A DNA stretch of 64,000 bases from positions 31,067 to 95,066 of the forward strand of contig CAVUDL010000006.1 in the NCBI GenBank assembly GCA_963740175.1, read 5' to 3'. How positions within the stretch are numbered: position 1 is the first letter of the stretch; each line of letters opens with the position of its first letter. The notes beneath the pieces are model-generated. The model had not been told where the DNA came from. It made no database searches and saw only the letters and a list, made by a program, of their open reading frames with translations. This stretch comes from an uncultured Gemmatimonadales bacterium (lineage in GTDB: Bacteria > Gemmatimonadota > Gemmatimonadetes > Gemmatimonadales > GWC2-71-9). This document shows, in pieces, positions 2,442 to 62,252 of this stretch. The position numbers and the translations under genes were made by a program.

Positions 2442-3728
2442 ATGAACCTCACACACTTCAATCTCTGGCCCGCCGCACTGGCTGCTGGCGCCGCTCGCTC
2501 TGGTTCTGGGAACGGGCATTTCCCCTCTGAAAAACGCGAAATGCGATGCCGATAACGGTGGCCTCGTGCTGCCCGAAGGCTTCTGCGCCACCCTCGTGGC
2601 GAGCCAGCTCGGGCCGGTGCGCCAGCTGGCTGTCGGCGCCGAACGGTGACCTTTACGCGGCGTTGAGCGGGAAGCCGGGCGACGCCACCGGCGGGATACT
2701 GGCCTTCAGAGACCGCGATGGCGACGGCAAGCCGGACGAGCGCGCCAGCTTCGGCCCCGGCGGGGGCAACGACGTCAAGCTTCATAACGGCTATCTGTAC
2801 TTTGCGCTCAACGACCGGGTGGTACGCTACCAGCTCAGCGGGGGAAAGCTCGAGCCCGGCGGGAAAGAGGAGGTCGTGGTCTCGGAGCTTCCCAGCGACG
2901 GTGGGCACATGGCCAAGAGCATTGCCTTCGGCCCGGACGGAGCGATGTACGTGAACATCGGGTCCAAGACGAACAGTTGCCAGAAGACCGACCGGCTTCC
3001 CAGCCTCGCCGGGACATGACCCCTGCACCGAGCTGGAACAGCGGGCAGGCATCTGGCGCTTCTCGGCGGACCGCCCGGGCCAGCGTTTCGCCGACGGCCG
3101 CCGCTTCGCCACTGGCCTCCGCAACGCGATGGCCCTGGCCTCTCAGCCAGGAACCGGCGCGCTCTTCGCCGCGGTCCACGGCCGGGATCAGCTCAGCAGC
3201 AACTGGGGATTCAGCGACAAGGTGAACGCGAACAACCCGGCCGAGGAGCTGGTGCTGGTCGAGCCCAACGGTGATTACGGGTGGCCGTATTGCTACTACA
3301 GCAATCAGTACCGGAAGAAAGTGCTGGCACCCGAGTACGGCGGAGATGGAGAGAAGGTCGGCCGCTGCAGCACCGCCAAGAATCCGTTGGTTGCCTTTCC
3401 CGGCCACTGGGCGCCAATGGCCTTGGCGTTCTACTCCTCTGACGCCTTCGGGCCGAAGTACCGGGGTGGCATGTTCGCCGCGTTCCACGGGTCTTGGAAT
3501 CGCGACCCGCTGCCACAGGCGGGCTACCGGGTGGTGTTCATCCCCTTTGCCAATGGCCGGCCGGCGGGCGAGTACTCCACCTTCGCGACCGACAAGGGAG
3601 GACCCACGGCGCTCCGGGCGAGCGGAGTCGCGGTTGCGCCGGACGGATCGCTCTACATCTCGGCCGATCAGAATGGGAAGATCTGGAGGGTGACGAAGGG
3701 GGATAGCAGCGTGAGCGGTCAGCGGTGA
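2442..3728 (+). CDS. PQQ-dependent sugar (glucose/sorbosone) dehydrogenase-like beta-propeller; several apparent frameshifts, start uncertain
   Basis: Pieces: putative signal peptide from ATG 2442 (MNLTHFNLWPAALAAGAA); DNGGLVLPEGFCATLVASQLGPVRQLAV in another frame; ORF 2546..3019 (PNGDLYAAL...GGHMAKSIAFGPDGAMYVNIGS); and ORF 3129..3728 (DYGWPYCY...VAPDGSLYISADQNGKIWRV). Confidence 0.65.
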
Positions 3729-3775
3729 GCGGGATCGCTCCGGAGTCCGCTTACCGCTTACCGTTACCGCTTACG
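3708..3775. repeat. Inverted short-repeat arrays (GCGTGAGCGG-type left, CCGCTTAC x3-4 right) between convergent genes
   Basis: Left array agcgtgagcggtcagcggtgagcggg at 3708-3733 and right array ccgcttaccgcttaccgttaccgcttacg at 3747-3775. The arrays overlap the last codons of the dehydrogenase (stop 3726-3728) and of thrC (stop at 3764). Confidence 0.85.
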
Positions 3776-8613: not shown

Positions 8614-8637
8614 CTAGCAATAGCCAATAGCCCTAGC
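8614..8637. repeat. Short CCAATAG-type heptamer repeat in the thrA / 8655 divergent intergenic region
   Basis: ctagcaatagccaatagccctagc read directly. It uses the same heptamer unit as the arrays at 15753-15870. Confidence 0.7.
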
Positions 8638-13902: not shown

Positions 13903-14544
13903 ATGAGAATGCAGCTGTTGACGCTGGCGGTGCTGGGCGGTGCCGCCCCGCCAGCCGGGGCGCAGGAGACCTGCATCGAACAGATGAAGTTTCCGCAGGT
14001 GGGCCGGTGGGCCGAGTACAATGCGGTCTTCAAACAGAAGGAGCCGTACACCATGCGGTACGCCGTGATCGGTGAGGAATCGAGGGAAGGCAAGGCGCTG
14101 AAGTGGCTGGAACTTCGCACCACCGGCAACAAGAAGGACGGAGACATCGTGTACCAGATGCTGGTGCCCGGCTCAGTGACCCAGCTGGGTGACGTGCACG
14201 AGATCGTAATGAAGCACGGCGACAAGCCGGCGATGAAGATGGACGGGATGATGCTCGACATGATTAAGGGCCAGATGCAGAAGCAGTCGTTCCTCAGCGA
14301 CATGTGCCGGGACGTGACCCTGGTCGGATCGGAAAAGGTCTCGGTGCCTGCCGGGGAGTTCCAGGCCGGGCACTTCCGAAGCGACAAATACTCGTCCGAC
14401 ACCTGGGTAACGGCTGAGGTACCGTTTTCCATGGTGAAGTCGACCGGAAAGGACTTCGAGCTGACCCTGCTCCGGCACGGAGAAGGGGCGAAGTCTTCCA
14501 TCACGGAGAAGCCCACAGCCATGGGCGCGCCCCAGCCCAAATAG
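13903..14544 (+). CDS. Hypothetical secreted protein with a Met-rich segment
   Basis: Signal-like N-terminus MRMQLLTLAVLGGAAPPAGAQE and the segment MKHGDKPAMKMDGMMLDMIKGQMQKQ. I recognise no family. Confidence 0.55.
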   Translation: MRMQLLTLAVLGGAAPPAGAQETCIEQMKFPQVGRWAEYNAVFKQKEPYTMRYAVIGEESREGKALKWLELRTTGNKKDGDIVYQMLVPGSVTQLGDVHEIVMKHGDKPAMKMDGMMLDMIKGQMQKQSFLSDMCRDVTLVGSEKVSVPAGEFQAGHFRSDKYSSDTWVTAEVPFSMVKSTGKDFELTLLRHGEGAKSSITEKPTAMGAPQPK

Positions 14545-14746
14545 CAGAAAGGAAGCAAATTCGCTGAAAATCGCCGGAAATGACTCTTTTTGGTGGTATT
14601 TAGCGGTTTTCCGACGTTTTCTCGCGACACTCTGGCATCGTATTGAGCTCCTGCCAAACTTGCAGTCCTTCCGGATCCTCTGGTCGCGGGGGAATCCCTG
14701 CCGGACGAGCCGCAACTGACCATCCCCATGGGGTTTATCTAAGGTG

Positions 14747-14775
14747 TTGATTTCTCGCATCTTAGGCGTTATATT
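14747..14775 (+). promoter_or_regulatory. Sigma-70-type promoter candidate for the sigma factor gene
   Basis: TTGATT (14747-14752), a 17-nt spacer, then TATATT (14770-14775). It lies in a locally AT-rich 310-nt intergenic island about 80 nt upstream of the GTG start. Confidence 0.5.
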
Positions 14776-14854
14776 GGCCGACTTCAAATTTGGCTCGGCC
14801 TCAGTCGTGGCTGTTCACCGAGCAGGGGACAATGTCCCGTAGGAGGCTAAAGGC

Positions 14855-15748
14855 GTGACAATCAAGGCACGTGGCAAGCGTCGCCCGGTACGGCCGGCGC
14901 AGATCGCTCGGGCAATCGATGAAGGTCGCGAAAGTCTGGACCTTTATCTGGACGAGATCAGCCGGGTTCCGCTCCTCAATCGTGAGGAGGAGATGGAGCT
15001 CGCCCGGAAGGCGTTCAAGGGGAATGTGACTGCCCAGGAACGTCTGGCGCGCCACAATGTCCGGTTTGTCGTCTCGGTGGCCAAGAAGTTCCAGAACCGG
15101 GGGGTCCCGCTGGTCGACCTGATCGGCGAGGGCAATCTCGGACTCATGACCGCGGCCCGGAAGTTCGATCCGGACCGGGGGGTAAAATTCATCTCGTACG
15201 CGGTTTGGTGGATCCGCCAGGCGGTCCAGGCGGCCATCGCCCGGCACGGCCGTCCGGTCCGGGTTCCGCTCAACCGCACCGCCGACCTAAGTCGGCTCGG
15301 GCGCACCACCACGCTGTTGAAGGACCGGCTGGGCCGTATGCCCACCACCGAGGAGCTTGCCCGCGCTACCGGTCTCACGGTCGAGGCCGTGCGGTCCCTG
15401 AGCGCGCTGAACTCCGAGGCGGTGCGGCTCGATCATCCCACCCGCGACGGTGAAGGCAACGAGCGTATCGAGCGCTTCACCAGCGGGGAGCAGGAAAGCA
15501 CGGACATGTCGACCATGGCCAACAGCCAGACGCGCGACATCGAGGCTGCGCTGGCGGCGCTGCCGCCGCGGGATGCCAAGGTGCTCCGGCTCTACTTCGG
15601 TCTGGACGATGGCAACAGCCGAACCCTGGAAGAGATCGGTCGCATGATGGGTGTAACCCGCGAGCGTATTCGGCAGCTTCGCGATCGGGCCCTGCTGCGC
15701 CTGCGGGAAGGTGAGACCGGCGAACGGCTGAAGGATCTGGTGGCGTAA
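14855..15748 (+). CDS. RNA polymerase sigma factor, RpoD/sigma-70 family (non-primary, no region 1.1)
   Basis: Regions 1.2/2 (LYLDEISRVPLLNREEEMELARK, FVVSVAKKFQNRGVPLVDLIGEGNLGLMTAARKFDPDRGVKFISYAVWWIRQA), 3 and 4 (TLEEIGRMMGVTRERIRQLRDRAL) are present. GTG start with AGGAGG at 14841-14846. Confidence 0.85.
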   Translation: MTIKARGKRRPVRPAQIARAIDEGRESLDLYLDEISRVPLLNREEEMELARKAFKGNVTAQERLARHNVRFVVSVAKKFQNRGVPLVDLIGEGNLGLMTAARKFDPDRGVKFISYAVWWIRQAVQAAIARHGRPVRVPLNRTADLSRLGRTTTLLKDRLGRMPTTEELARATGLTVEAVRSLSALNSEAVRLDHPTRDGEGNERIERFTSGEQESTDMSTMANSQTRDIEAALAALPPRDAKVLRLYFGLDDGNSRTLEEIGRMMGVTRERIRQLRDRALLRLREGETGERLKDLVA

Positions 15749-15752
15749 GGGT

Positions 15753-15870
15753 CATTGGCTATTGGCTATTGGCCGATGCGGTGTTCGAGAAACCCTCCAA
15801 GACTGGGAGGGTTTCTTATTTTCCAGCCGATAGCCAATAGCCAATAGCCAATAGCCCATAGCCAATAGCC
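15753..15870. repeat. Inverted heptamer arrays (ATTGGCT)n ... (CCAATAG)n flanking a canonical terminator
   Basis: Left array cattggctattggctattggcc at 15753-15774. Right array ccgatagccaatagccaatagccaatagcccatagccaatagcc at 15827-15870. The arrays are reverse complements of each other. Confidence 0.9.
15788..15822 (+). terminator. Rho-independent terminator of the sigma factor gene
   Basis: Perfect 11-bp stem AGAAACCCTCC / GGAGGGTTTCT with loop AAGACTG, followed by TATTTT. Confidence 0.8.
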
Positions 15871-15874
15871 ATCC

Positions 15875-16252
15875 ATGAACCCCATCCCCCACGCCATCAA
15901 CCGCCAGGACGACGGCCTTCGCATCGAATGGGACCAGAGTGGCCACGAAGGGTTTTTCCCGGCGCGCGAGCTACGCCTGGCCTGTCCTTGCGCTGCCTGC
16001 GTGGAGGAGATGAGTGGGCGGCCGATCCTGGATCCGAGCACCGTTCCAGCGGATATCCGGCCGGTCTCCCTGGCCCTGGTGGGCGCGTATGGCCTCAAGA
16101 TCCAGTGGAGTGACGGCCACTCAACCGGCATCTATACCTTTGAGCGTCTGCTAAGCTGCTGTCCCTGCCGGCAGTGCCTGAGCCTCGGTGACCGGCGACA
16201 CATCCCCCTCGCGCATTTTCGAGACAATCTGTACACTCAGCGTAGTTTCTAG
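15875..16252 (+). CDS. DUF971-family protein (gamma-butyrobetaine hydroxylase-like N-terminal domain)
   Basis: LRIEWDQSGHEGFFPARELRLACPCAACVEE...LKIQWSDGHSTGIYTFERL is the typical DUF971 pattern as I recall it. Confidence 0.65.
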   Translation: MNPIPHAINRQDDGLRIEWDQSGHEGFFPARELRLACPCAACVEEMSGRPILDPSTVPADIRPVSLALVGAYGLKIQWSDGHSTGIYTFERLLSCCPCRQCLSLGDRRHIPLAHFRDNLYTQRSF

Positions 16253-16276
16253 GCGAGTCCTCCTCTGGAGCCACTG

Positions 16277-16807
16277 ATGCCGCATCAGCACCATTCGAAC
16301 GTTCGCGAAGGACTACTCGCCGGTCTGATTGGAGGGCTGCTGGTCGCCGGATGGTACTTTGCCGTGGACCTGGGACGGGGTGAGATGTTCTATACCCCGA
16401 ACGTCCTGGGCCAGGTCTTCGCGCAGGGTGACACCATTCCCAGCACCAGAACGGTTACCTCTCCGGCGGTGGTGCAGTATTCCCTGCTGCATTTCGGATG
16501 GTTCGTCCTGTTCGGGATCGCCCTTGCGGCACTGACGCATCTGGCGTTGCGAAATCCACAGCTCCGCATGGGTGTCTGGCTGTTTCTGGTGATCGGATTC
16601 GTCTTCTGGCTGGGCATCTCCTACACCCTGTACCGGCTGACAGACCAGCGGTTACCGTGGTGGACATTGTTCGTCGGGAGCGCACTGGGCATTGGTTCGA
16701 TGGGATTCTACCTCTGGCGGCGGCATCCAGGTCTGCGAGGAAGCATGCAGCATCGGCCGTTGGGGGCCGAGGTGAAGTCACCGCCACATCCGCCTGGGGG
16801 TCCTTGA
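16277..16807 (+). CDS. Hypothetical 4-TM membrane protein, paralog A
   Basis: Four hydrophobic segments. It shares GLIGG..VA.W, F.TP..LGQV and a C-terminal YLW.RHP....S.Q..PLG with the next gene. Confidence 0.6.
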   Translation: MPHQHHSNVREGLLAGLIGGLLVAGWYFAVDLGRGEMFYTPNVLGQVFAQGDTIPSTRTVTSPAVVQYSLLHFGWFVLFGIALAALTHLALRNPQLRMGVWLFLVIGFVFWLGISYTLYRLTDQRLPWWTLFVGSALGIGSMGFYLWRRHPGLRGSMQHRPLGAEVKSPPHPPGGP

Positions 16808-17551: not shown

Positions 17552-20171
17552 TTGCTGGCTCAGCTCGAGCCACCCTCCACCGGTGGGGTCGTGGCCCTGG
17601 ACCAGGAGCTCCGGATGCTGGGACACTACAAGCGCGTGCTGATGATCGGTGCTCATCCTGATGACGAGGACACCGAGCTTCTCACCGTGCTGGTGCGCGG
17701 TATCGGGGCCGAGGCGGCGTATCTCTCGCTGAACCGGGGTGAAGGGGGCCAGAATCTGATCGGTCCCGAGCTGGGCGAGGCGCCTGGGCCTGATCCGGAC
17801 CGAGGAGCTGCTCGCCGCCCGGCGGCTGGATGGCGCCCGACAGTACTTCACCCGCGCTTACGACTTCGGCTACTCCAAGACCATCGACGAGACCTGGCAG
17901 CACTGGCCGCGGGACACGGTCCTCAAGGACGTCGTGAGGATCGTCCGGCGGTTTCGTCCCCAGATCATCGTGACGGTCTTCAGCGGAACACCGCGGGACG
18001 GCCACGGGCAGCATCAGGCAGCTGGCTGGTCGGCGCATGGAGGCGTTCCGGATCGCGGGCGACTCCAGCCGGTTTCCGGAGTTGTTCCGCGAGGAGGGGC
18101 TGGTTCCCTGGGCGCCCATGAAGCTCTACCGCAGCGCCCGATTCGATACGGCCGCCACGACCCTCACGCTGAACGGCGGGATCCTCGATCCGGCGGTCGG
18201 GAAATCGTTTCACCAGATCGCCATGGCGGGCCGCAGCCTGCATCGGTCTCAGGACATGGGACAGCTCCAGGGCATCGGGCCGTCGCAGGTTCGATTGGCG
18301 CTGGTCGAGGACCGTACCGGCGGTGGGCCGGGTCTGTTTGGGGGGATCGACACCACGCTTGCTGCCATGCCGCTGGGCGAGCGGCGGAGCGCCGGAATCG
18401 GCTGAACTGGTCCGTGCTTCCGAGGCGGAGCCGGGGCTTCGGCGCTACGTGCGCACGCGTCGATTCCCTGCGCGCCGCCCGCGGCAATTCGGCTCGGCGG
18501 AGGGTCCTGCTGGCCCGTGCCGCCGCCGATCTGGACGCGGCCGTAGCGCAGCCGCCGCGCGCCTCCTCCGCCGAGCGCGGGGTCTACTACACCCGGGGCA
18601 TCGAGCTGGAGGATCAGCTGGCCCATCTGAATGCCGCCGCGTGGCACCTGGGCGGCGTGGTGTTCGATGCCATCATGGATGACGACAGGGTCGTACCGGG
18701 ACAGATGCTGCGCTGGATGCTGTCCTCCTGGAATGCCTCCGAGGAGTCCCGCATGGCGGCCATGCGCGCCGCCGAGTGCATACCCCTGGCCGAGTGTCGC
18801 GCGCCCGACCGGGAACCGGTGGCCCATACGGTGCCTCCGGGGCAGGTGAGTACCGACACCATCGACTATCAGGTGTCCGAGATCAGCCGCCGACTACGCC
18901 TTACTTTCTCCGGTTGCCCCGGAACGGCGATCTGTACCAGTGGCCGGAGGAACGCGCAGACCAGGCGCGGATCACCGGCGGGCTTCCCTACGGAGAGCCG
19001 TTCGAGTCGCCCACGTTCCTCGGATCGGTCGAAGTCAATGCCGGAGAATCGGACAGCCTGGGAGCGGCTCGGTCGACGGAGGCGGTCTTTCGCTTCAACG
19101 ACCAGGCTCGGGGAGAGGTGCGCCGGCCGGTGACCGTCATGCCTCGCGTCGACGTGAAGATAGATCCCGCCGTCGAGCTGTGGTCCACGAATTCAGGGGC
19201 ACCCCACAAGTTCACCGTCACGCTGACCCATGGCGCCCGGGACACGACTTCCGGCACCGTGAGTCTGCAGCTGCCTCGGGGTTGGCCGGCGGTGGCGCCG
19301 CAGCGTTTCCAGTTCACCCGGGAAGACGAACGCGCCACGCTGGATTTTCATGGTCAAGGCGCCTCTCAAGGTGGGGACGGACTCGGGAGAGATCCGGGTG
19401 GTGGCGCGCGATGCCGAGGGTGCGGTGTACGGCGTCGGCGTCTTCACGGTGGACTATCCCCACATCCGCCCCCGCGCATACGTGAAGCCTGCAGTGGCCA
19501 CGCTCCGGATGGCGCCGCTGGCGTTGCCGCGGCTTGGTCAGAGTCGGGTACGTCCGCGGCGCGGCCGACCAGGTTCCCGAAGCGCTCGCGAGTGTCGGGG
19601 TGCCGGTGGTGCTGCTGAGTCCGGAAACGCTGGAGCGAGGAAATCTCTCCCGGTTCGACGCCATCGTGGTGGGCCCTCGCGCCTATGAAACTGATTCCGC
19701 CCTCGTGGCCAATAACCGGCGCCTGCTGGATTACGCCCGGCGGGGTGGGCTGGTGATCGTGCAGTACCAGCAGCATCGCTTCTTCACCAGTGGCTTTGCG
19801 CCGTATCCCATGACGCTGGGGGGACCGGGGGTGAGTCATGACCGCGTCACCGATGAGAAGGCGCCGGTCCGAATCCTGGCCAAGGCGCACCCGGGGTGCG
19901 AGTGCCGAACCGTCTTACCGGTGCCGACTGGGCGGGATGGGTGCAGGAGCGCGGGCTCTACTTCCCGCGCAGCTGGGATGGCCGCTATCAGCCGGTCCTC
20001 GAAACCCACGATCCCGGCGAGACTCCGCAGAAAGGAGGGCTGCTCATCGCGCCGGTGGGGAAGGGGACCTACGTCTACACCGGGCTGAGCTTCTTCCGGC
20101 AGCTGCCGGCGGGGGTCCCGGGTGCATTCCGGCTGTTCGCGAATCTGCTGGCGCTCCCGCATGGGCGGTAG
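17552..20171 (+). CDS. Large PIG-L (LmbE-like) family deacetylase with a C-terminal ThuA/amidotransferase-like domain; at least seven apparent frameshifts
   Basis: N-terminus [16 protein letters not shown]. The protein continues co-linearly through ORFs 17552.., 17934.., 18037.., 18776.., 19350.., 19534.. and 19896..20171 ([12 protein letters not shown]...[41 protein letters not shown]). A signal-like peptide from a GTG near 17490 is possible. Confidence 0.65.
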
Positions 20172-20287
20172 CGGGAAGGGCGGGAGAGGCGGGAAGGGCG
20201 GGAGGGGACGCGTCCGCGTGGCGGCGCTTGCTGCGTTCCTGCCTTGCTTTCCTTCCTGTCCTTCCCGTCCTTACCGCCTTTTCCGCC
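20171..20287. repeat. Inverted 9-mer arrays (GCGGGAAGG)x4 ... (CCTTCCCGT-like)x5
   Basis: Left array gcgggaagggcgggagaggcgggaagggcgggagggg at 20171-20207 starts on the last base of the PIG-L stop codon. The right array at 20237-20287 lies inside the signal-peptide coding part of the next gene. Confidence 0.85.
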
Positions 20288-25209: not shown

Positions 25210-27143
25210 TGAGCGAGGAAGACCGGATGGTGCGGCTCGAGGCGCGGGTGGCGCGGCTTGAGGGTTTGCTGGAGACGTGCGGCGGGGCAGCGGGGCAGCG
25301 GGGAAGTCGGACAGCGGGGCAGCGGGGCGAGCGGGCAGCACGACATGAGCCCGAGCATCCTGGCGGTTCCCCTACACCAACACCACCTGCTGCCCCGCTG
25401 CCCCGCCGCCCCGCTGCCGCGCCGCCCCGCCGCCCCGCTGCCCTTCTGTCCTCCGAGCAATGGATCGGCCAGCGGGTGCTCCTGGCGGTCGGTGTGGTCG
25501 CGCTCATCCTGGCAGCGGGTTACCTGCTACGCCTCTCCTTCGATCGCGGCTGGATCTCTCCGCTGATGCGCTGCATTGGAGGAGCCCTCGGGCGGCATCG
25601 TGGTCGGCGCGGTCGGCTGGCGGCTCCAATCCCGCTACCGCACCTATGGGGCGGCACTGATCGGCTGCGGCGCGGCGATCATATACCTGAGTGTGTGGGC
25701 GGCGGCCCGGCTCTACGGCGTGCTCCCCCCTACCACCGGCATCGTCGGCCTGGCGCTGGTGTCGATCGCCCTGGCGATGATCGCGTATGCCATCGACGTA
25801 GAAGCGCTGGGAACTACCGCTGCACTCGGCGCCTTCTTCGCGCCGATCCTGCTAGGTCAGGATCAGGCCAACCCCGGCATGCTGCTCCTGTACCTCGCCT
25901 GCATGGCGGCGGGGCTCGGCCTGGTGGCCGCGCGGCGGCGCTGGCGGCTCACCATGTTCGTCGTTGCGCTCAGCTACTTCGGGGTGGCCTTTAGCGGCGC
26001 GGCCGAACGAGGGCCACCGTGGGGGCTCCTGTTCTACGGTGTCCTCGGCGGAGCGGCCGGGATCTACGTCGGGCTGAAGGAACGCTGGTGGGAAACCCGG
26101 TTTCTCAGCTTCGGCGGTGGCTGGGCCTTCGTCTTCGCGGCCAGCCGGCACCTGGATGAACCCTGGGCCATCCTTGCAGCTGCGTATCCTGTTGGCCGCG
26201 CCGGTGTGGTGGTACGCCCTGCGGACCACGCAGATCCTGCCTTTGAATCTCTTTCCCATCGCCGGTGTGGCCGGATGGTCGCTGGGCGAGGCATTCTACT
26301 TCTTTCTGACGCCGGTGCTGCTTGCCTGGGCTGTCTACGGTGTCGCTCCCGGCTTCTTCGACAACATACCGGGGTTGGTCGCGCTGATCGTCGCAATACC
26401 GTATCTGGTTGCCGGCTACTATCGGGTGCGTCCGGTCTTCGCAGTGGTCGGTGCCGCGGCGCTCGGCGTGGCCGCATGGCAACACTGGGGCGGCGTCGAA
26501 CGAGTATGGGTCCTGCTGGCTCTGGCCCTGCTGTGGGCGGCGCTCGACCATGCAGCTCAAACGCGATGATGGCCGCTGGTTTGCCCTGGCCACATTGTGG
26601 GCCGCACTCGACCAGCTGTTTACCGGTGCGCTGCTGGAGCGTCCACCGGCAGAGTCCGCCTTTGTGGGCACCTGGTCTCTGGCGCTTTGGGGCACGGTGG
26701 CGGCCACGGTCGTTCTGGCCCGGGGACTCTGGAGATCGGTGGCACCGACCAGCGTTGCCCCGCTGATACGGGGCGGGCTCTGGGCACTCGCCGGAGCCAT
26801 GGTGCTGTTCGGGGTGACGGGTGAGATCGGACGGTACTTCGACCTGAAGCCGCTGTCCTCGACGGACGCGGAGCTGGCGGCGGGGCTTGCCGTGAGCGCC
26901 TGGTGGCTGGTGTTCGCGGCCGCGCTGGTTGGACTGGGCTTTCGGCGCAATCTCAAGCCGGCGCGCCTCGCCGGTTTGGCGGTGGCGGGACTCGCGGTGG
27001 TCAAGGTGCTCCTGTTCGATCTCGCGTCGCTCGACGCACTGTATCGGGTCGGCTCGGTCTTCATTCTGGGTCTGGTGTTTCTGCTTCTGGCGTATCTATA
27101 CCACCGGCAAGGCCGCAGTGAATCGCGCCCCACCGCCGTGTAA
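25209..27143 (+). CDS. DUF2339-type polytopic membrane protein; about three apparent frameshifts
   Basis: N-terminal coiled coil MSEEDRMVRLEARVARLEGLLE, a low-complexity linker, then many hydrophobic helices spread over ORFs 25209.., 25576.., 26117.. and 26409..27143. The ATG overlaps the MFS stop (TGATG). Confidence 0.6.
25283..25443. repeat. Inverted octamer arrays (GGGGCAGC)n ... (GCTGCCCC)n inside the DUF2339 coding sequence
   Basis: Left array at 25283-25339 and right array at 25388-25443. They are translated as GGAAGQRGSRTAGQRGERAA and PPAAPLPRRPAAAPPRRPAA. Confidence 0.9.
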
Positions 27144-29047: not shown

Positions 29048-29275
29048 ATGGCCAAAGAAGAAGGCATCGAGATGGAAGGCGTGGTCACCGAGGTTCTGCC
29101 GGACCGGAACTATCGCGTACTACTGGAGAACGGCCACGAAATCCTCGCCTATGCGGCCGGGAAGATGAGCAAGTTCAAGATTCGGGTGCTCGAGGGCGAC
29201 CGGGTGAGCGTGGTGCTGTCGCCGTATGATCTTACCCGGGGCCGGGTGATTTACGGCACAAGTGAAGTGGTCTAG
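29048..29275 (+). CDS. infA: Translation initiation factor IF-1
   Basis: [69 protein letters not shown]. Confidence 0.9.
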
Positions 29276-29345
29276 GGTCAAGGATCTAGGGTCTATTTCG
29301 CCTGGTCTAGGGTCTATTTCCCTTTCTTGACCCTCGACCCTAGAC
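29271..29345. repeat. CTAGGGTC-type direct repeats followed by an inverted GACCCTCGACCCTAGAC arm
   Basis: Direct copies: tctagggtc (29271-29279, containing the infA stop), atctagggtctatttc (29284-29299) and ggtctagggtctatttc (29304-29320). The inverted arm gaccctcgaccctagac is at 29329-29345. Confidence 0.85.
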
Positions 29346-29346
29346 A

Positions 29347-29381
29347 ACAAAAAGGGCCGCCCGATTGGGCGGCCCTTTTTG
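29347..29381. terminator. Bidirectional Rho-independent terminator between infA and cspA
   Basis: A-run, GGGCCGCCC, loop GATT, GGGCGGCCC, T-run. The symmetry lets it serve both convergent genes. Confidence 0.8.
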
Positions 29382-29393
29382 TTCTAGACCGTG

Positions 29394-35791: not shown

Positions 35792-35887
35792 GCGGGGCAG
35801 CGGGGCAGTAGGACGAATCGGGTTGGCGCCACGGAACGTACCGGTGTGCTGTGGCTGCCGCGCCGCCCCGCGGCCCCGCTGCCCCGC
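35792..35887. repeat. Inverted octamer arrays (GGGGCAGC / GCTGCCCC type) between queE and the HD gene
   Basis: gcggggcagcggggcag at 35792-35808 and gctgccgcgccgccccgcggccccgctgccccgc at 35854-35887. The latter ends on the base before the queE stop (35888-35890). Confidence 0.9.
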
Positions 35888-36523
35888 TTACGGAATGCCG
35901 AGAAGCTTATGCGTCTGAAGGCTCAGCCGCCAGCGCGGATGCGCCAGGCAGTAGCGCAGGGCGGCATCGGTATTGGCCTGCCGCTCCGCTCCATCCATCG
36001 GCTGAAGGAAGAAGTTTCGAAACGGCAGGCGCTCGAAGAGCTCCGGCTCGGCGCCGGCCTGGGGAAATACCAGCTTGATCTCGTCTCCGGTTCGGACCAC
36101 CAGCTCCGAGCCGGCCTTTGGACTCACGCAGAGCCAGTCGATGCCGGGCGGGACCGGAAGGGTTCCGTTGGTCTCGACCGCGACCTCGAACCCCGCCCCG
36201 TGCAGGTCCCTCAGAAGCGGGGCATCCAGCTGGAGGAGCGGCTCGCCGCCGGTGCACACCACGAAGCGCTTTCCCTGATCCTCGGCCGGCCAGGTCGACG
36301 CGACCGCGGCCGCGAGCGCTTCGGGGCTGGTGAAGCTTCCCCCGCCGGGGCCGTTGGTGCCGACGAAGTCGGTGTCGCAGAACTGGCAAATGGCGTTGGC
36401 CCGGCTGTGCTCCCGACCGTTCCACAGGTTACAGCCGGCGAAACGGCAGAACACCGCGGCCCGGCCGGTATTTGCGCCTTCTCCCTGGAGGGTGTAGAAG
36501 ATCTCCTTGATGGCGTATGTCAT
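35888..36523 (-). CDS. queE: 7-carboxy-7-deazaguanine synthase (radical SAM)
   Basis: MTYAIKEIFYTLQGEGANTGRAAVFCRFAGCNLWNG...CQFCDTDF. The start is taken at the internal Met (36523) of ORF 35888..36625. Confidence 0.85.
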   Translation of the reverse strand: MTYAIKEIFYTLQGEGANTGRAAVFCRFAGCNLWNGREHSRANAICQFCDTDFVGTNGPGGGSFTSPEALAAAVASTWPAEDQGKRFVVCTGGEPLLQLDAPLLRDLHGAGFEVAVETNGTLPVPPGIDWLCVSPKAGSELVVRTGDEIKLVFPQAGAEPELFERLPFRNFFLQPMDGAERQANTDAALRYCLAHPRWRLSLQTHKLLGIP

Positions 36524-45233: not shown

Positions 45234-45339
45234 GAGGGTCTATGGTCTAGAGTCTAAGGTCTATCCGTATACGGCGGACCCATAGTAGACTCTCGATGCT
45301 CGCTGGCGACTCTCGACCCTCGACCCTAGACTCTCACCA
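45234..45339. repeat. GGTCTA/TAGACC-type short repeats around the palindrome CCGTATACGG in the gltA / peptidase divergent region
   Basis: gagggtctatggtctagagtctaaggtctatcc at 45234-45266, ccgtatacgg at 45265-45274, and gactctcgaccctcgaccctagactctcacc up to 45339. This unit is related to the 29271-29345 locus. Confidence 0.8.
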
Positions 45340-46898: not shown

Positions 46899-47087
46899 CA
46901 GCGTGAGTGGGACAAGGACAAGCGTGAGCGGGACGCGAGGGGTCGAGTAACGATGAGCGCTACCCTGTCATCCTGATCGTAGCGAAGGATCTGGTCGTCA
47001 GGCGCATTAGAGTCATCCATGGGCCGACTCGGATGACACATGGTGCTGTTCCCCTCACGGCTTACGCTTGTCCTTGTCCCGCCCACG
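46899..47087. repeat. Imperfect inverted repeats of about 37 bp enclosing about 110 bp (MITE-like palindromic element)
   Basis: Left arm cagcgtgagtgggacaaggacaagcgtgagcgggacgcgagggg at 46899-46941. Right arm cccctcacggcttacgcttgtccttgtcccgcccacg at 47051-47087. The core gggacaaggacaagcgt(g/a)ag is shared. The interior carries a gtcatcctgatcgtagcgaaggatc motif. Confidence 0.8.
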
Positions 47088-52190: not shown

Positions 52191-52283
52191 GCACACCTCA
52201 TCCCGAATGCAACGAGCGATCTACTTAGCCGGCTACCGGAGCCAGTTAGGTAGATCCCTCGCTTCGCTCGGGATGAGGTGCTG
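52191..52283. repeat. 93-nt near-perfect palindromic element (TCATCCCGAGCGAAGCGAGGGATC family)
   Basis: Left arm gcacacctcatcccgaatgcaacgagcgatctac at 52191-52224, a 25-nt loop containing ccggctaccgg, and right arm gtagatccctcgcttcgctcgggatgaggtgctg at 52250-52283. About 27 of the 31 core positions pair. Confidence 0.85.
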
Positions 52284-52855: not shown

Positions 52856-54742
52856 TTACCTCTTCCCCGCCTCCCCCACCATTCCCGTCTCCAGCCACGT
52901 GTGCTCGTTCTTGATCACCTGCTGCGCCACCTCGTACGTCCGCACGTCGTCATTCTCGAACACAGCCGCGAACTTCTCTTCCACCCGGCGCCGGGCGTGA
53001 CGGCTGAATAGGTCAGCCAGCTTCACCGCCCCAATTTCTTCCTGCCCCGCTGCCCCGCTGCCCTTCTTTCGGCACATCGCAACCGCCCGCGCGCACGCCG
53101 CGGTGATCGCGAGCAGCTCGGCGCCGATCTCCACCAGCCGGCCCAACACCACCTGGCGCTTCTCCAGCTTGGGCCCGAACCGCACCATGCAATGGAACAG
53201 CGTCCGAGCCAGGCGCCGGCAGGAGCGGCTTACGAACCGCATATGCGTCGCCAGCGGCCCGAATTCGCCGTACCGCGGCGTCACCAATCCGGCCAGCCAG
53301 AGCTTGGGGTACCAGAAGGCATAGTAGGCACCCGAGCGCAGCAGCGCCTGGATCTTCTTCGAGGTCGGCGCCTTGGGATCGATCAGGTCGCCCGCCAGCT
53401 TGAGGTGGGTGTCCACCGCCTCGCGGGCGATGAACAGGCGCATGATCTCGCTCGATCCCTCGAAGATCAGGTTGATCCGGTAGTCGCGCATCATCCGCTC
53501 GACCGCATCCGGCCGCTCGCCTCGACTCCTGAGGCTGTCCGCGGTCTCGTAGCCGCGGCCGCCCTTGATCTGAAGCGTGTCGTCCACGATGCGCCAGCCG
53601 ATCTCGGTGTTCCACATCTTGGCCATGGCAGCCTCGAGCCGGATGTCGGCATCACCCCGGTCGGCCATCAGCGAAGCCAGGTCCGACACCGCCTCCATGG
53701 CGAAGATGTCGGCCGCCATCCGTCCCACCTTCTGGGCGATGGCGTCGTGCTTGCCGATCGGCTGGCCCCATTGCACCCGCTTGGCGGCCCACAGCCGCAC
53801 GATCTCCAGACAGCGCTTGGCGCCGGCCACCGCCGAGGCGGGGAGGGTCAGCCGCCCGGTGTTGAGGGTGATGAGGGCGAGCTTGAGTCCCTTGCCCTCG
53901 CCCCAGATGACGTTCTCCACCGGCACTTTCACGTTGGTGAAGCGGATGATGCCGTTCTCCAGCGCCTTCAGCCCCATGAAGTGGAGCCGCTGCACCACCT
54001 CGACGCCGGGCCAGTCGGCCTCGACGATGAACGCCGTGATCTTCTTCGTACCGGTGCGGGCCATCACCACCATCAGCTCGGCGATGGTGCCGTTGGTGCA
54101 CCAGAGCTTCTCGCCGTTGAGGATGTAGTGCTTGCCGTCGGGCGACAGGGTGGCCGTGGTGCTGAGCGCCGCAGGATCGGAGCCCACCTGGTTTTCGGTG
54201 AGCGCAAACGCCGACACCGCGCCCTTCGCCAGTCGGGGCAGATACTTCTTCTTCTGGGCCGGGGTGCCGAACAGCTTGAGCGGAGTGGGGACGCCGATCG
54301 ACTGGGCCGCGGAGAGCAGGGCGGTCAGGTTGCCGTCCTGGCTGGTCACCAGGCCGATGGCGTGGGTGTAGCTGTACTGGCTCAGCCCCAGGCCGCCGTA
54401 CTCGGTCGGGATTTTGATGCCGAACGCACCGATGTCACCCAGCTCTTTCACGATCTCGGGCGGGATCTTCCCGTCCCGGTCGATCTTGTCGCTGTCCACC
54501 CGCTGCTGCATGAACTTCTCGAGCCGCTCCATGAACGGCCTGGCCCGGGCGAGATCGGCCGGGTCGGGTTGGGGGAAAGGATGCACCAGGTCGAGCCGGA
54601 ACGAGCCCTCGAACAGCTCGCGCACGAAACTGGGCGATTCCCACTCCTTCTCGCGCGCCGCTTCGGCGACTTCGCGGGCCTCCTGCTCGGTGGCCAGAGG
54701 AGTATGCGCCGTCCGCTGGGGACCGCTGAGAACGTCAGTCAT
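52856..54742 (-). CDS. Long-form acyl-CoA dehydrogenase (VLCAD/FadE-like, about 628 aa)
   Basis: Start at MTDVLSGPQ. Contains ALTENQVGSDPAA, WCTNG and RGYETA, with a long C-terminal helical extension. TetR is the upstream neighbour, overlapping by 8 nt. Confidence 0.8.
   Translation of the reverse strand: MTDVLSGPQRTAHTPLATEQEAREVAEAAREKEWESPSFVRELFEGSFRLDLVHPFPQPDPADLARARPFMERLEKFMQQRVDSDKIDRDGKIPPEIVKELGDIGAFGIKIPTEYGGLGLSQYSYTHAIGLVTSQDGNLTALLSAAQSIGVPTPLKLFGTPAQKKKYLPRLAKGAVSAFALTENQVGSDPAALSTTATLSPDGKHYILNGEKLWCTNGTIAELMVVMARTGTKKITAFIVEADWPGVEVVQRLHFMGLKALENGIIRFTNVKVPVENVIWGEGKGLKLALITLNTGRLTLPASAVAGAKRCLEIVRLWAAKRVQWGQPIGKHDAIAQKVGRMAADIFAMEAVSDLASLMADRGDADIRLEAAMAKMWNTEIGWRIVDDTLQIKGGRGYETADSLRSRGERPDAVERMMRDYRINLIFEGSSEIMRLFIAREAVDTHLKLAGDLIDPKAPTSKKIQALLRSGAYYAFWYPKLWLAGLVTPRYGEFGPLATHMRFVSRSCRRLARTLFHCMVRFGPKLEKRQVVLGRLVEIGAELLAITAACARAVAMCRKKGSGAAGQEEIGAVKLADLFSRHARRRVEEKFAAVFENDDVRTYEVAQQVIKNEHTWLETGMVGEAGKR
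53042..53063. repeat. GCTGCCCC-type octamer repeat (2.5 copies) in frame inside the acyl-CoA dehydrogenase gene
   Basis: ctgccccgctgccccgctgccc, translated on the minus strand as KKGSGAAGQEE. Confidence 0.85.
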
Positions 54743-55421
54743 GGCTCGAATGCTCGGTTGAGGTTGTGGTGAGTGATGAACTACCGCGGAGTCCGTGCAA
54801 CACCAGTCCGATGACATGGCGCTTCCGCCGCTCCAGATCGCCCGGCTCTTCCACCCGGACGCCCACCGCGGGTGCAACCGTCCGCGAGTGAATCATGGGG
54901 AACCAGCAGAGCGAGATGATGCTGAGCAGGAGCTGTGCCGCCTCGCCTGACGGGGAGTCGTCAAGACCCAGCTCCGCGCTGATCGCCGCCAGTGCTTCCT
55001 GGCCGGCGGACAGATGACTCACGCCGTGGGGAAGCCGGCTCCCGCTGAGGGCCTCGCGCTCGATCAGCCGGACGAAGTTGGGACGGGCGGCGAGAAAGTC
55101 GAAGTAATCGGAGACGGCGCCGGCCAGGATGGTCTCGTGGCCCTCGTTGCTCGCCAGCGCCCGGGCTCGCCCGGCCCGCACCGCATCGCGCACCTCGGCG
55201 AAGCTGCGGTCCAGCACGGCCTGGTAGAGCTCGGATTTAGATCGGAAGAAATAGCCGGGGGTGCCGCGGGAGACGCCGGCCGCCGCACCCACCTGGGTCA
55301 GGCTGGTCGCGTCATACCCCTGCTCGGCAAATAGCCGCTCGGCGGCGTCGAGGATCGCCGCCCGGCTCCGCTCTGCATCGCGCACTTTCTCGGGATTGCT
55401 GGCCAATGGGGCCTCGCGCAA
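54735..55421 (-). CDS. TetR/AcrR-family transcriptional regulator
   Basis: N-terminal HTH ILDAAERLFAEQGYDATSLTQVGAAAGVSRGTPGYFFRSKSELY. Confidence 0.85.
   Translation of the reverse strand: MREAPLASNPEKVRDAERSRAAILDAAERLFAEQGYDATSLTQVGAAAGVSRGTPGYFFRSKSELYQAVLDRSFAEVRDAVRAGRARALASNEGHETILAGAVSDYFDFLAARPNFVRLIEREALSGSRLPHGVSHLSAGQEALAAISAELGLDDSPSGEAAQLLLSIISLCWFPMIHSRTVAPAVGVRVEEPGDLERRKRHVIGLVLHGLRGSSSLTTTSTEHSSHD

Positions 55422-57286: not shown

Positions 57287-57287
<1 letters not shown>
57229..57287. repeat. Hairpin plus CCTTCCCGT-type 9-mer repeats abutting the gltB stop
   Basis: Perfect 11-bp stem gacgggaagga (57229-57239) / tccttcccgtc (57249-57259), followed by cttcccgtcctttttcccgccttcccgc up to the gltB stop at 57287-57289. 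Confidence 0.85.
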
Positions 57288-62011
<4,724 letters not shown>

Positions 62012-62252
62012 GGTGTCTCCTGAGTTGTCGTGGCCCAGCAGCCGGAGAGGCTGCATTCGAGGCCATAAAAAAGCCCGCTCCACATTGGGAGCAGGCCGGG
62101 GTTAACGCAGAGCACGCTAACTCACCCGGGCGCTCCCTTGGAGCGGACGAGATTGAGATTGCTGTTGAGATTGACGTTAGTGAGCGACGTGATCATGATG
62201 CATTATTATGCATCGCGGTGCATTCGTCAAGCGGGTGGGGACAGGGGGACAG

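Follow-up and report, generated by a model that had tools for sequence, protein, structure and literature searches.

Why would an intergenic spacer hold two facing tandem-repeat arrays around a hairpin that already looks able to end transcription? The question is raised by one locus in a 64-kb stretch (hereafter the window, the whole stretch of DNA analyzed) of an uncultured Gemmatimonadales genome. Here, a sigma-70-family gene (14855–15748, + strand; stop codon TAA at 15746–15748), encoding 297 residues with Pfam regions 1.2, 2, 3 and 4, is followed on the same strand by a DUF971/GBBH-like_N gene (15875–16252, + strand; 125 residues, assigned by Pfam). The spacer contains a G-richer 5′ arm, (ATTGGCT)×2.9, at 15754–15773, a predicted intrinsic terminator of the sigma gene at 15787–15823 and a C-richer 3′ arm, (AGCCAAT)×6.7 or (CCAATAG)n, at 15825–15871, all given on the + strand. 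The 5′ arm was delimited by Tandem Repeats Finder (TRF) and an inverted-repeat search and lies in the sigma 3′ untranslated region (UTR), upstream of the terminator; the 3′ arm was delimited by TRF and folding. TRF reports 100% matches in the 5′ array and 92% in the 3′ array, and both are tandem 7-nt units beyond chance length, as in long simple sequence repeats (SSRs), which have units of 5–11 nt. The arrays are mutually inverted, with 20-nt arms that are 95–100% complementary, and they fill the spacer: the first starts 5 nt past the sigma stop codon and the last ends 3 nt short of the DUF971 ATG. TRF, the inverted-repeat search and RNA folding thus confirm the layout proposed in a first-pass annotation of this DNA, both in the coordinates and nesting of the terminator within the arrays and in the occupation of the whole spacer. 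That annotation suggested that, if the inner terminator suffices, the arrays might be a protein-binding array, a slippage-prone spacer or an insulator. Our analysis leads us, with modest confidence, to regard the arrays as slippage-driven intergenic repeats filtered by orientation, and their nesting around the terminator as incidental.

The terminator can be considered separately from the arrays. The predicted RNA fold of positions 15745–15880 is a 20-bp outer helix around a 12-bp inner hairpin (−68 kcal/mol, z = −8.9, 0 of 200 shuffles as stable), and minus-strand RNA and single-stranded DNA adopt the same fold (−37 kcal/mol, z = −8.4 for the latter). The inner stem (15787–15798/15806–15817) consists of 11 Watson–Crick pairs and a closing G-U pair around a 7-nt loop (15799–15805), is followed by TTATTTT and lies 39 nt past the sigma stop codon; on its own, the core folds with −20.6 kcal/mol (z = −3.9). 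It therefore has what defines an intrinsic terminator, namely a stable GC-containing stem, a loop of 3–8 nt and a U-tract after the stop codon on the gene's strand; on the minus strand, the tail of the hairpin is not U-rich. A simple terminator scan with a strict T-run rule did not call this hairpin, most likely because its T-run is one T short of the rule. In view of the short UUAUUUU tail and the missed call, the word 'canonical' in the first-pass annotation is slightly generous. Judged by its sequence, the inner hairpin with its U-tract is the predicted intrinsic terminator of the sigma gene itself, apparently under purifying selection.

The outer helix does not contribute to termination, since polymerase is already beyond the release site when it makes the 3′ arm; the terminator is self-sufficient, as the first-pass annotation had supposed. 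In the terminated sigma transcript, the 5′ arm is predicted to fold on itself through G-U pairs and the terminator stays intact, which rules out an anti-terminator role for this arm. The outer helix could matter only in read-through RNA. There, the arrays would clamp the terminator in a 20-bp helix, leaving a G-poor leader, free of start codons and with UAG in every frame, ahead of the DUF971 start, which has no Shine–Dalgarno (SD) motif. In the fold, about 20 nt of the 3′ arm pair with the 5′ arm and about three units remain single-stranded directly before the DUF971 ATG. Read from the sequence, the C-type unit contains no ATG, GTG or TTG and has TAG in all three frames, and no SD motif is present in the 3 nt between the 3′ array and the ATG. 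The start at 15875 is backed by the orthologue in a related genome (L125). Because an SD-like motif precedes only ~33% of ATG genes (10% in a control window), a start that abuts an array, as in DUF971, is not unusual in these genomes.

The orthologous site in relatives separates the stable from the labile parts of this structure. An identical sigma protein is encoded in four metagenome contigs, three with ~91% DNA identity to the window (L205–L207) and one with 94.5% (L208), which ends 6 nt past the sigma stop codon. All three of L205–L207 have the terminator stem GAGAAACCCTCC/GGAGGGTTTCT unchanged, the differences in the hairpin being confined to its loop. Arrays occupy the same position in these three contigs, changed in copy number, purity or unit: L205 has (CCACTAG)≥6, a homogenized variant unit, facing a degenerate 5′ arm that is unable to pair with it; L206 has a mixture of CCAATAG and CCAACAG, also facing a degenerate 5′ arm; and L207 has (CTATTGG)3. 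Variation of copy number and unit among relatives this close is the mark of slippage in long SSRs, and it bears out the slippage-prone spacer suggested in the first-pass annotation, since relatives at ~91% identity have different copy numbers and another homogenized unit at the same site. Arrays are missing, and the terminator hairpin is another one, in two relatives at ~84% DNA identity (L125 and L121) and in L123, whose sigma locus is 91% identical; L125 and L123 still have DUF971 downstream of the sigma gene. At the orthologous position, L123, L124, L125 and L127 have hairpins that differ from that of the window but are equivalent to it, followed by T-runs. In a Gemmatimonadales metagenome-assembled genome (MAG; JBOHSY010000312, L122), a 93%-identical sigma gene is followed at 3395–3542 by (GCTATCC)8, a hairpin and (GGATAGC)3–4; the core hairpin is strong (fold z = −5.3), and a convergent aconitase gene lies next to this nested structure, which repeats the architecture of the window locus with another heptamer. 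Conservation of the terminator thus goes together with evolutionary lability of the arrays.

The L205, L206 and L207 contigs end inside or just ahead of the 3′ array, as is typical of assemblies that break on repeats. Short-read contigs that end or start at arrays include L205–L208 and also L063, L072, L082 and L111.

We considered whether the outer helix might nevertheless be a selected, REP-like RNA structure, serving as an RNase III site, an exonuclease barrier or a back-up terminator in read-through or polycistronic RNA and uncoupling the sigma factor from DUF971. Its predicted stability and its position between co-directional genes would suit such a role, as would its perfect 20-bp duplex, about the length that RNase III needs, and the link between orientation and gene direction points to some RNA-level constraint. 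The evidence from the relatives speaks against it: the helix is lost in L205 and L206 despite the identical sigma protein and is absent in L125 and L123. The comparison of array pairs also gave no sign of selection on the outer helix. There is no correlation between the copy numbers of paired arms (r = 0.10, p = 0.53). Mismatches between arms are as often G-U as A-C overall (29 each), with 12 G-U and 18 A-C in the sense RNA of co-directional contexts; without an excess of G-U over A-C, there is no wobble signature of RNA pairing. Compensatory evolution or selection for pairing in RNA was thus negative in both tests. Pairs are, moreover, equally common between divergent genes, where the arms would lie mostly in different transcripts, and at our locus, the 3′ arm is made only after the terminator. 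We regard a selected RNA helix as unlikely, though deserving of some weight. Two analyses of which array end has decayed more contradicted each other in sign, and one of them has an anchoring bias.

Nor do the arrays generally enclose terminators. Cores between paired arrays are not more structured than shuffled sequences (mean z = −0.39), with only 4 of 37 below −2, and two of these four are sigma-downstream loci with a terminator. We therefore rejected the idea that arrays wrap terminators as a rule, and for the same reason, nucleation of palindrome extension by a core hairpin finds no support.

What the first-pass annotation overlooked is that these arrays form a genome-wide and order-wide class, rather than a device built around this terminator, and that they obey a strict orientation rule. 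A scan for (CCAATAG)3 in one genome per species returned at least 120 loci; among the matches listed, to which the counts of paired arrays below also refer, ~35 are spread over at least 16 genomes of Gemmatimonadales, Gemmatimonadaceae or Gemmatimonadota, several of them with many loci. The Gemmatimonadales loci listed always have the same layout, (CTATTGG)n, an unrelated core of 13–140 nt and (CCAATAG)m. The arrays include runs of variant units, such as CTGTTGG, CTATTAG and CTATGGG, which points to slippage. An inverted partner lies within 200 nt of 32 of the 52 long Gemmatimonadales arrays, and in all 32 pairs, the G-richer arm comes first. In other phyla, two of 81 arrays are paired, both in Chloroflexia. 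The heptamer is not the only unit used in this way: 338 kb of Gemmatimonadales DNA contains ~85 unit families, and neighboring arrays of the same unit are inverted in 36 cases and direct in one. The first-pass annotation had also allowed that the heptamer might be unique to two loci of the window and not conserved in relatives. The first part does not hold, as the heptamer is far from unique, whereas the second does at the orthologous site, where the array is not conserved beyond close relatives.

Outside the order, CCAATAG arrays occur in Chloroflexia in two MAGs (L004 and L112) and in Herpetosiphon (L034, L042 and L109). The two paired Chloroflexia arrays have the family orientation and are the only paired ones outside Gemmatimonadales among the 81 listed. 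A contig classed as viral (L210, IMGVR_UViG_3300045996_002144, GC 0.69) has a G-first CTATTGG...(CCAATAG)5 pair at ~940–1080; either resident mobile DNA acquires such arrays too or the contig is host DNA.

At least eight inverted array pairs, built from at least six different units of 6–9 nt, are present in the window itself (this locus and at least seven others). One is a decayed CCAATAG-family pair (8542–8570/8623–8651; fold z = −4.1, arms 72% complementary), which lies where an aspartokinase–homoserine dehydrogenase gene (− strand) and a DUF2062 gene (+ strand) diverge. The fragment of the heptamer repeat that had been noticed near 8614–8637 is real; it is a (CAATAGC)2.1 array at 8618–8632 and in fact the 3′ arm of this decayed pair. 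A longer pair, at 25282–25443 and upstream of a DUF2339-like gene, consists of (GCGGGGCA)7.2 and (GCTGCCCC)6.9 around a 49-nt core. TRF and the inverted-repeat search also gave an (AGCGGTG)/(CCGCTTA) pair at 3714–3774, a (GCGGGAAGG)/(TTCCTGTCC) pair at 20171–20272, a (GGTCTAG)/(GACCCTA) pair at 29269–29345, an octamer pair repeating the GCGGGGCA/GCTGCCCC unit at 35792–35888, a degenerate GGTCTAT pair at 45237–45335 and a weak hexamer pair at 46910–47079. The sequence CCAATAGCCAATAG, with up to two mismatches, occurs eight times in the window against 0.03 expected, and dispersed single-unit seeds show no excess there.

This diversity of units bears on the possibility that the arrays are bound multivalently by a protein with sequence-specific affinity for DNA or RNA; a nucleoid protein, a regulator of translation or an S1/Csp-like protein would be examples. 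A hypothesis of this kind was proposed earlier for the TAACTGA repeats of Beggiatoaceae (PMC4679880). An identical heptamer in at least 16 species-level genomes and the strict orientation would agree with a dedicated binding partner, and C-type arrays lie 0–20 nt upstream of starts in genomes where only about one-third of genes have an SD-like motif. Against this stand the ~85 unit families that share one layout, the change of unit at this very locus to CCACTAG in L205 and to GCTATCC in L122, and the dispensability of the arrays in near relatives. With so many families behaving alike, the helix lost in sister lineages and no arrays at ~84% DNA identity, the protein-binding array or insulator suggested in the first-pass annotation finds little room, and we consider a binding-protein array distinctly unlikely.

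The orientation of arrays follows the genes next to them. A pair usually opens 0–8 nt past a stop codon or closes no more than ~20 nt from a start codon. Of 27 CCAATAG-family arrays near a start, 26 read as C-type on the sense strand, and of 22 near a stop, 21 read as G-type; with other units, stop-proximal arrays favor a G-type sense strand by 18 to 6. Unpaired arrays obey the same rule (~15 of 16), and the two pairs with the opposite G/C skew (L122; L075 at 4850) keep a GCTAT...ATAGC motif in the family orientation. Gene contexts of pairs are roughly proportional to the background (co-directional 27, divergent 10 and convergent 8, versus 66, 30 and 25). Where a spacer has an array on each side, the rule alone is enough to produce an inverted repeat. 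Local base composition was ruled out as the cause of the rule, since array-free flanks have no G/C asymmetry.

An explanation at the DNA level would have the pairs extrude cruciforms or hairpins that absorb supercoils, organize the nucleoid or pause replication, as has been suggested for long SSRs generally. The very stable fold of the single-stranded DNA and an inverted geometry found in all gene contexts, divergent spacers included, would accord with such a function. Strand-symmetric properties, however, cannot explain why single arrays are oriented to the adjacent gene, and the uncorrelated arm lengths and inter-arm spacers of 15–100 nt, which are unfavorable to cruciform extrusion, also weigh against it. 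A function as DNA structure therefore seems to us very unlikely.

A non-autonomous mobile element, similar to a MITE (miniature inverted-repeat transposable element) or a REPIN, could in principle have inserted around or next to the terminator with heptamer arrays as its terminal inverted repeats. The pairs are indeed dispersed and intergenic, with inverted termini and presence or absence between relatives, and one lies on the high-GC viral contig. But the core differs from copy to copy, without a common flank or a target duplication, so that of the conserved interior, terminal inverted repeats and target-site duplication that characterize MITEs, the set is not found here. The arrays abut genes on both sides with no original spacer outside them, unit families are diverse, single-unit seeds are not in excess in the window and the GTAG or CGTC tag that defines REP superfamilies (PMC3733652) is absent. 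A mobile origin is highly improbable.

The same low standing applies to a contingency locus, in which copy number would change spacing or 5′-UTR length and switch DUF971 expression by phase variation. Its appeal lies in the differences in copy number and unit between close relatives and in a precedent from Haemophilus, where an intergenic heptanucleotide SSR controls expression (PMC12721329). Yet arrays flank all kinds of genes, including the near-universal sigma factor, glutamate synthase and transporters, and lie on both the 5′ and 3′ sides of genes, an argument that was also used against phase variation in Xanthomonas (PMC4692102); we give this explanation hardly any credence. Among candidates set aside, a G-quadruplex is ruled out by a unit with GG only, and Chi-like, DNA-uptake, integron attC and telomere-like addition sequences, considered on paper, do not fit units this diverse, neighboring housekeeping genes and a pair that encloses a conserved terminator.

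Our preferred reading, slippage under an orientation filter, would account for these observations as follows. The outer arrays would be one copy of a lineage-wide class of tandem repeats with 6–9-nt units, mostly heptamers, of the long-SSR type. They would occupy intergenic DNA that is not needed for promoters or terminators, where replication slippage, the presumed engine, would make them grow, shrink and homogenize. The shared unit suggests common descent of a pair's arms, or copying between them, after which each would evolve independently. Only one orientation would be tolerated, with the G-richer strand as sense after a stop codon and the C-richer strand as sense before a start codon. Since even single arrays follow the direction of the gene, RNA is the most likely level at which this filter operates. 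Placed ahead of a start codon, a G/U-rich array would add SD-like purine runs, and the G-type unit of the CCAATAG family would there create UUG starts in every frame with no stops; a C-rich, G-poor untranslated array right after a stop codon would resemble a Rho loading site. The arrays around this terminator probably have no locus-specific function.

Several observations weigh against this reading or limit the data behind it. Many species retain the same heptamer despite turnover at single loci, which pure neutral slippage would not predict and which hints at a sequence-specific factor or a copying mechanism. Two positions of the unit distinguish L122 from the window, and they are the same two in either arm; these matched differences could reflect exchange of information between arms or selection to pair. 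The strict orientation rule finds no explanation in local base composition, given the symmetric flanks, and it leaves the shared unit of both arms unexplained. As for the data, most comparison loci were ascertained through CCAATAG, many come from the same few MAGs, so that counts are not independent events, and the context statistics rest on a crude open reading frame (ORF) picker based on GC content at third codon positions (GC3), with longest-ORF starts.

What neutral slippage leaves unexplained, namely a heptamer conserved across the order, a chirality of 32 to 0, arrays flush against coding sequences and arms that share a unit, would fit a bolder proposal, an active system of gene-boundary punctuation in Gemmatimonadales, Xanthomonas and some cyanobacteria, whose arrays are written or read by a trans-acting factor or a dedicated copying mechanism. 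The C-rich strand would enter each gene and the G-rich strand would leave it; the arrays might serve as pads, letting ribosomes or Rho in at entry and keeping them out at exit, or as 5′- and 3′-UTR tags that complement each other. We accord this proposal only a small probability.

The genes and remaining sequences around the locus were also examined. Sigma homologues number in the hundreds at 88–98% identity, all named ones from Gemmatimonadales or Gemmatimonadota MAGs, and are labeled primary sigma or RpoD/SigA by their sources. The protein is short (297 residues) and has no region 1.1 hit; a short primary sigma factor is reminiscent of Bacteroidetes. The exact DUF971 protein product has no database record. 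A promoter consensus scan of 14500–16500 found only one candidate, upstream of the sigma gene, and none in the 3′ arm; by eye, the heptamer has no convincing match to TTGACA/TATAAT or to the Bacteroidetes-type TAnnTTTG, consensuses that may not be those of Gemmatimonadales. An Rfam scan of the whole window gave 0 matches at gathering thresholds.

Tandem arrays also occur inside genes of the window. The glutamate synthase large-subunit gene (57287–62083, − strand; GATase_2, Glu_syn_central, Glu_synthase and GXGXG domains) contains in-frame short tandem arrays at 58180–58261, 59405–59451 and 59824–59863. Within it, (CTCCGTCCT)5 encodes 'RTERAERTERTERTE' between domains, and copies of the GCTGCCCC octamer, a unit of the intergenic pairs, encode linkers rich in Gly, Gln and Arg; a further copy lies at 53042–53063, inside the ORF 52856–54877. 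Two further hairpins lie in the window. A perfect 17-bp palindrome, AACAAAAAGGGCCGCCC/GGGCGGCCCTTTTTGTT, at 29346–29383, with A- and T-runs on either side, resembles a bidirectional terminator for the convergent genes around it and adjoins the GGTCTAG array pair. An imperfect hairpin at 52194–52280, with 41-nt arms, 80% complementarity and a 5-nt loop, lies between two small ORFs and has no tandem units.

The arrays have practical consequences for work on this order. They take up a sizeable share of Gemmatimonadales intergenic spacers and break short-read assemblies, and they are likely a systematic cause of fragmentation of Gemmatimonadales MAGs. They give strong hairpin predictions that are probably meaningless, so that finders of terminators, small RNAs and MITEs could mis-annotate them. 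They also provide hypervariable markers for strain typing in a poorly cultured phylum.

Comparison with known systems places the inner and outer parts of the structure in different classes. With intrinsic terminators, the locus shares the inner 12-bp GC-containing stem, the 7-nt loop and the U-rich tail; it departs from the typical case in its short U-tract, UUAUUUU, and the outer arrays are not part of the terminator. With REP, BIME and REPIN elements, the arrays share dispersed, intergenic, hairpin-forming repeats near gene ends, sometimes as inverted dimers. Proposed roles of those elements are mRNA stabilization, termination and supercoiling. REPs, however, are palindromes of 20–40 nt with conserved sequence, a GTAG or CGTC tag and a link to RAYT transposases (PMC3733652), whereas the copies described here share only a 7-nt unit, have tandem arrays as arms and unrelated cores and flanks, and lack the tagged palindrome.

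Closer parallels exist among long SSRs and heptamer repeats. Like the cyanobacterial STRR heptamers reportedly described by Mazel et al. in 1990, the arrays are built of 7-nt units. With long SSRs of 5–11 nt, they have in common a non-coding location, a scattered distribution among lineages and heptamers as the commonest period. As relayed in PMC4679880 and PMC4692102, Mrazek et al. (2007) found heptamers to be the commonest long-SSR period, with slippage as the proposed engine. In those relayed accounts, long SSRs and STRRs are single direct arrays, and systematic inverted pairing with an orientation rule is not part of the description. The TAACTGA repeats of marine Beggiatoaceae (MacGregor 2015, PMC4679880) likewise abut starts that lack an SD motif and use one unit across distant genomes. 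They comprise 169 direct sets and one indirect set, however, so that they are almost never inverted, and they are unreported after stop codons, whereas the Gemmatimonadales arrays are paired and also follow stops.

The closest precedent is the GGGAATC heptamer pairs of Xanthomonas, and the arrays would thus belong to a kind that is known but lacks a functional explanation. Rehm et al. (2015, PMC4692102) described intergenic heptamer arrays of GGGAATC in Xanthomonas and GGGGA(C/T)T in Nostoc, with 2–26 units and dispersed over the genome. Xanthomonas has 70–75 heptamer pairs per genome in convergent (inverted) orientation, and in both genera, the G-rich strand is coding within 50 bp after stop codons and non-coding within 50 bp before start codons (PMC4692102). 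These repeats vary in length and sequence among close relatives, have no tie to a gene class or mobile element and are of unknown function (PMC4692102). The Gemmatimonadales arrays share with them the convergent intergenic pairs of one unit (32 of the 52 arrays; 36 inverted versus one direct) and a G-type strand that is sense after stops and antisense before starts (21 of 22 and 26 of 27, respectively). They differ in phylum and in the coexistence of many unit families, where Xanthomonas has one dominant family, and their pairs are not depleted between divergent genes, where Rehm et al. report under-representation (PMC4692102). They also lack the four or more G-tracts needed for a G-quadruplex, as ATTGGCT has GG only and the 5′ arm has three units. 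With such a unit, a quadruplex cannot be the rationale, so the likeness to Xanthomonas lies in layout and not in quadruplex chemistry. Literature searches combining Gemmatimonadetes or Gemmatimonas with repeat terms found no description of such repeats in Gemmatimonadota. What is new is the phylum, a unit without G-tracts, many unit families with one layout and turnover seen directly at one orthologous site. Paired heptamers in Xanthomonas and cyanobacteria have long been unexplained and were rationalized by G-quadruplexes; the same layout and rule, found here in a different phylum with a unit incapable of forming one and with dozens of further units, argue that it is the orientation rule, and not the quadruplex, that needs explaining.

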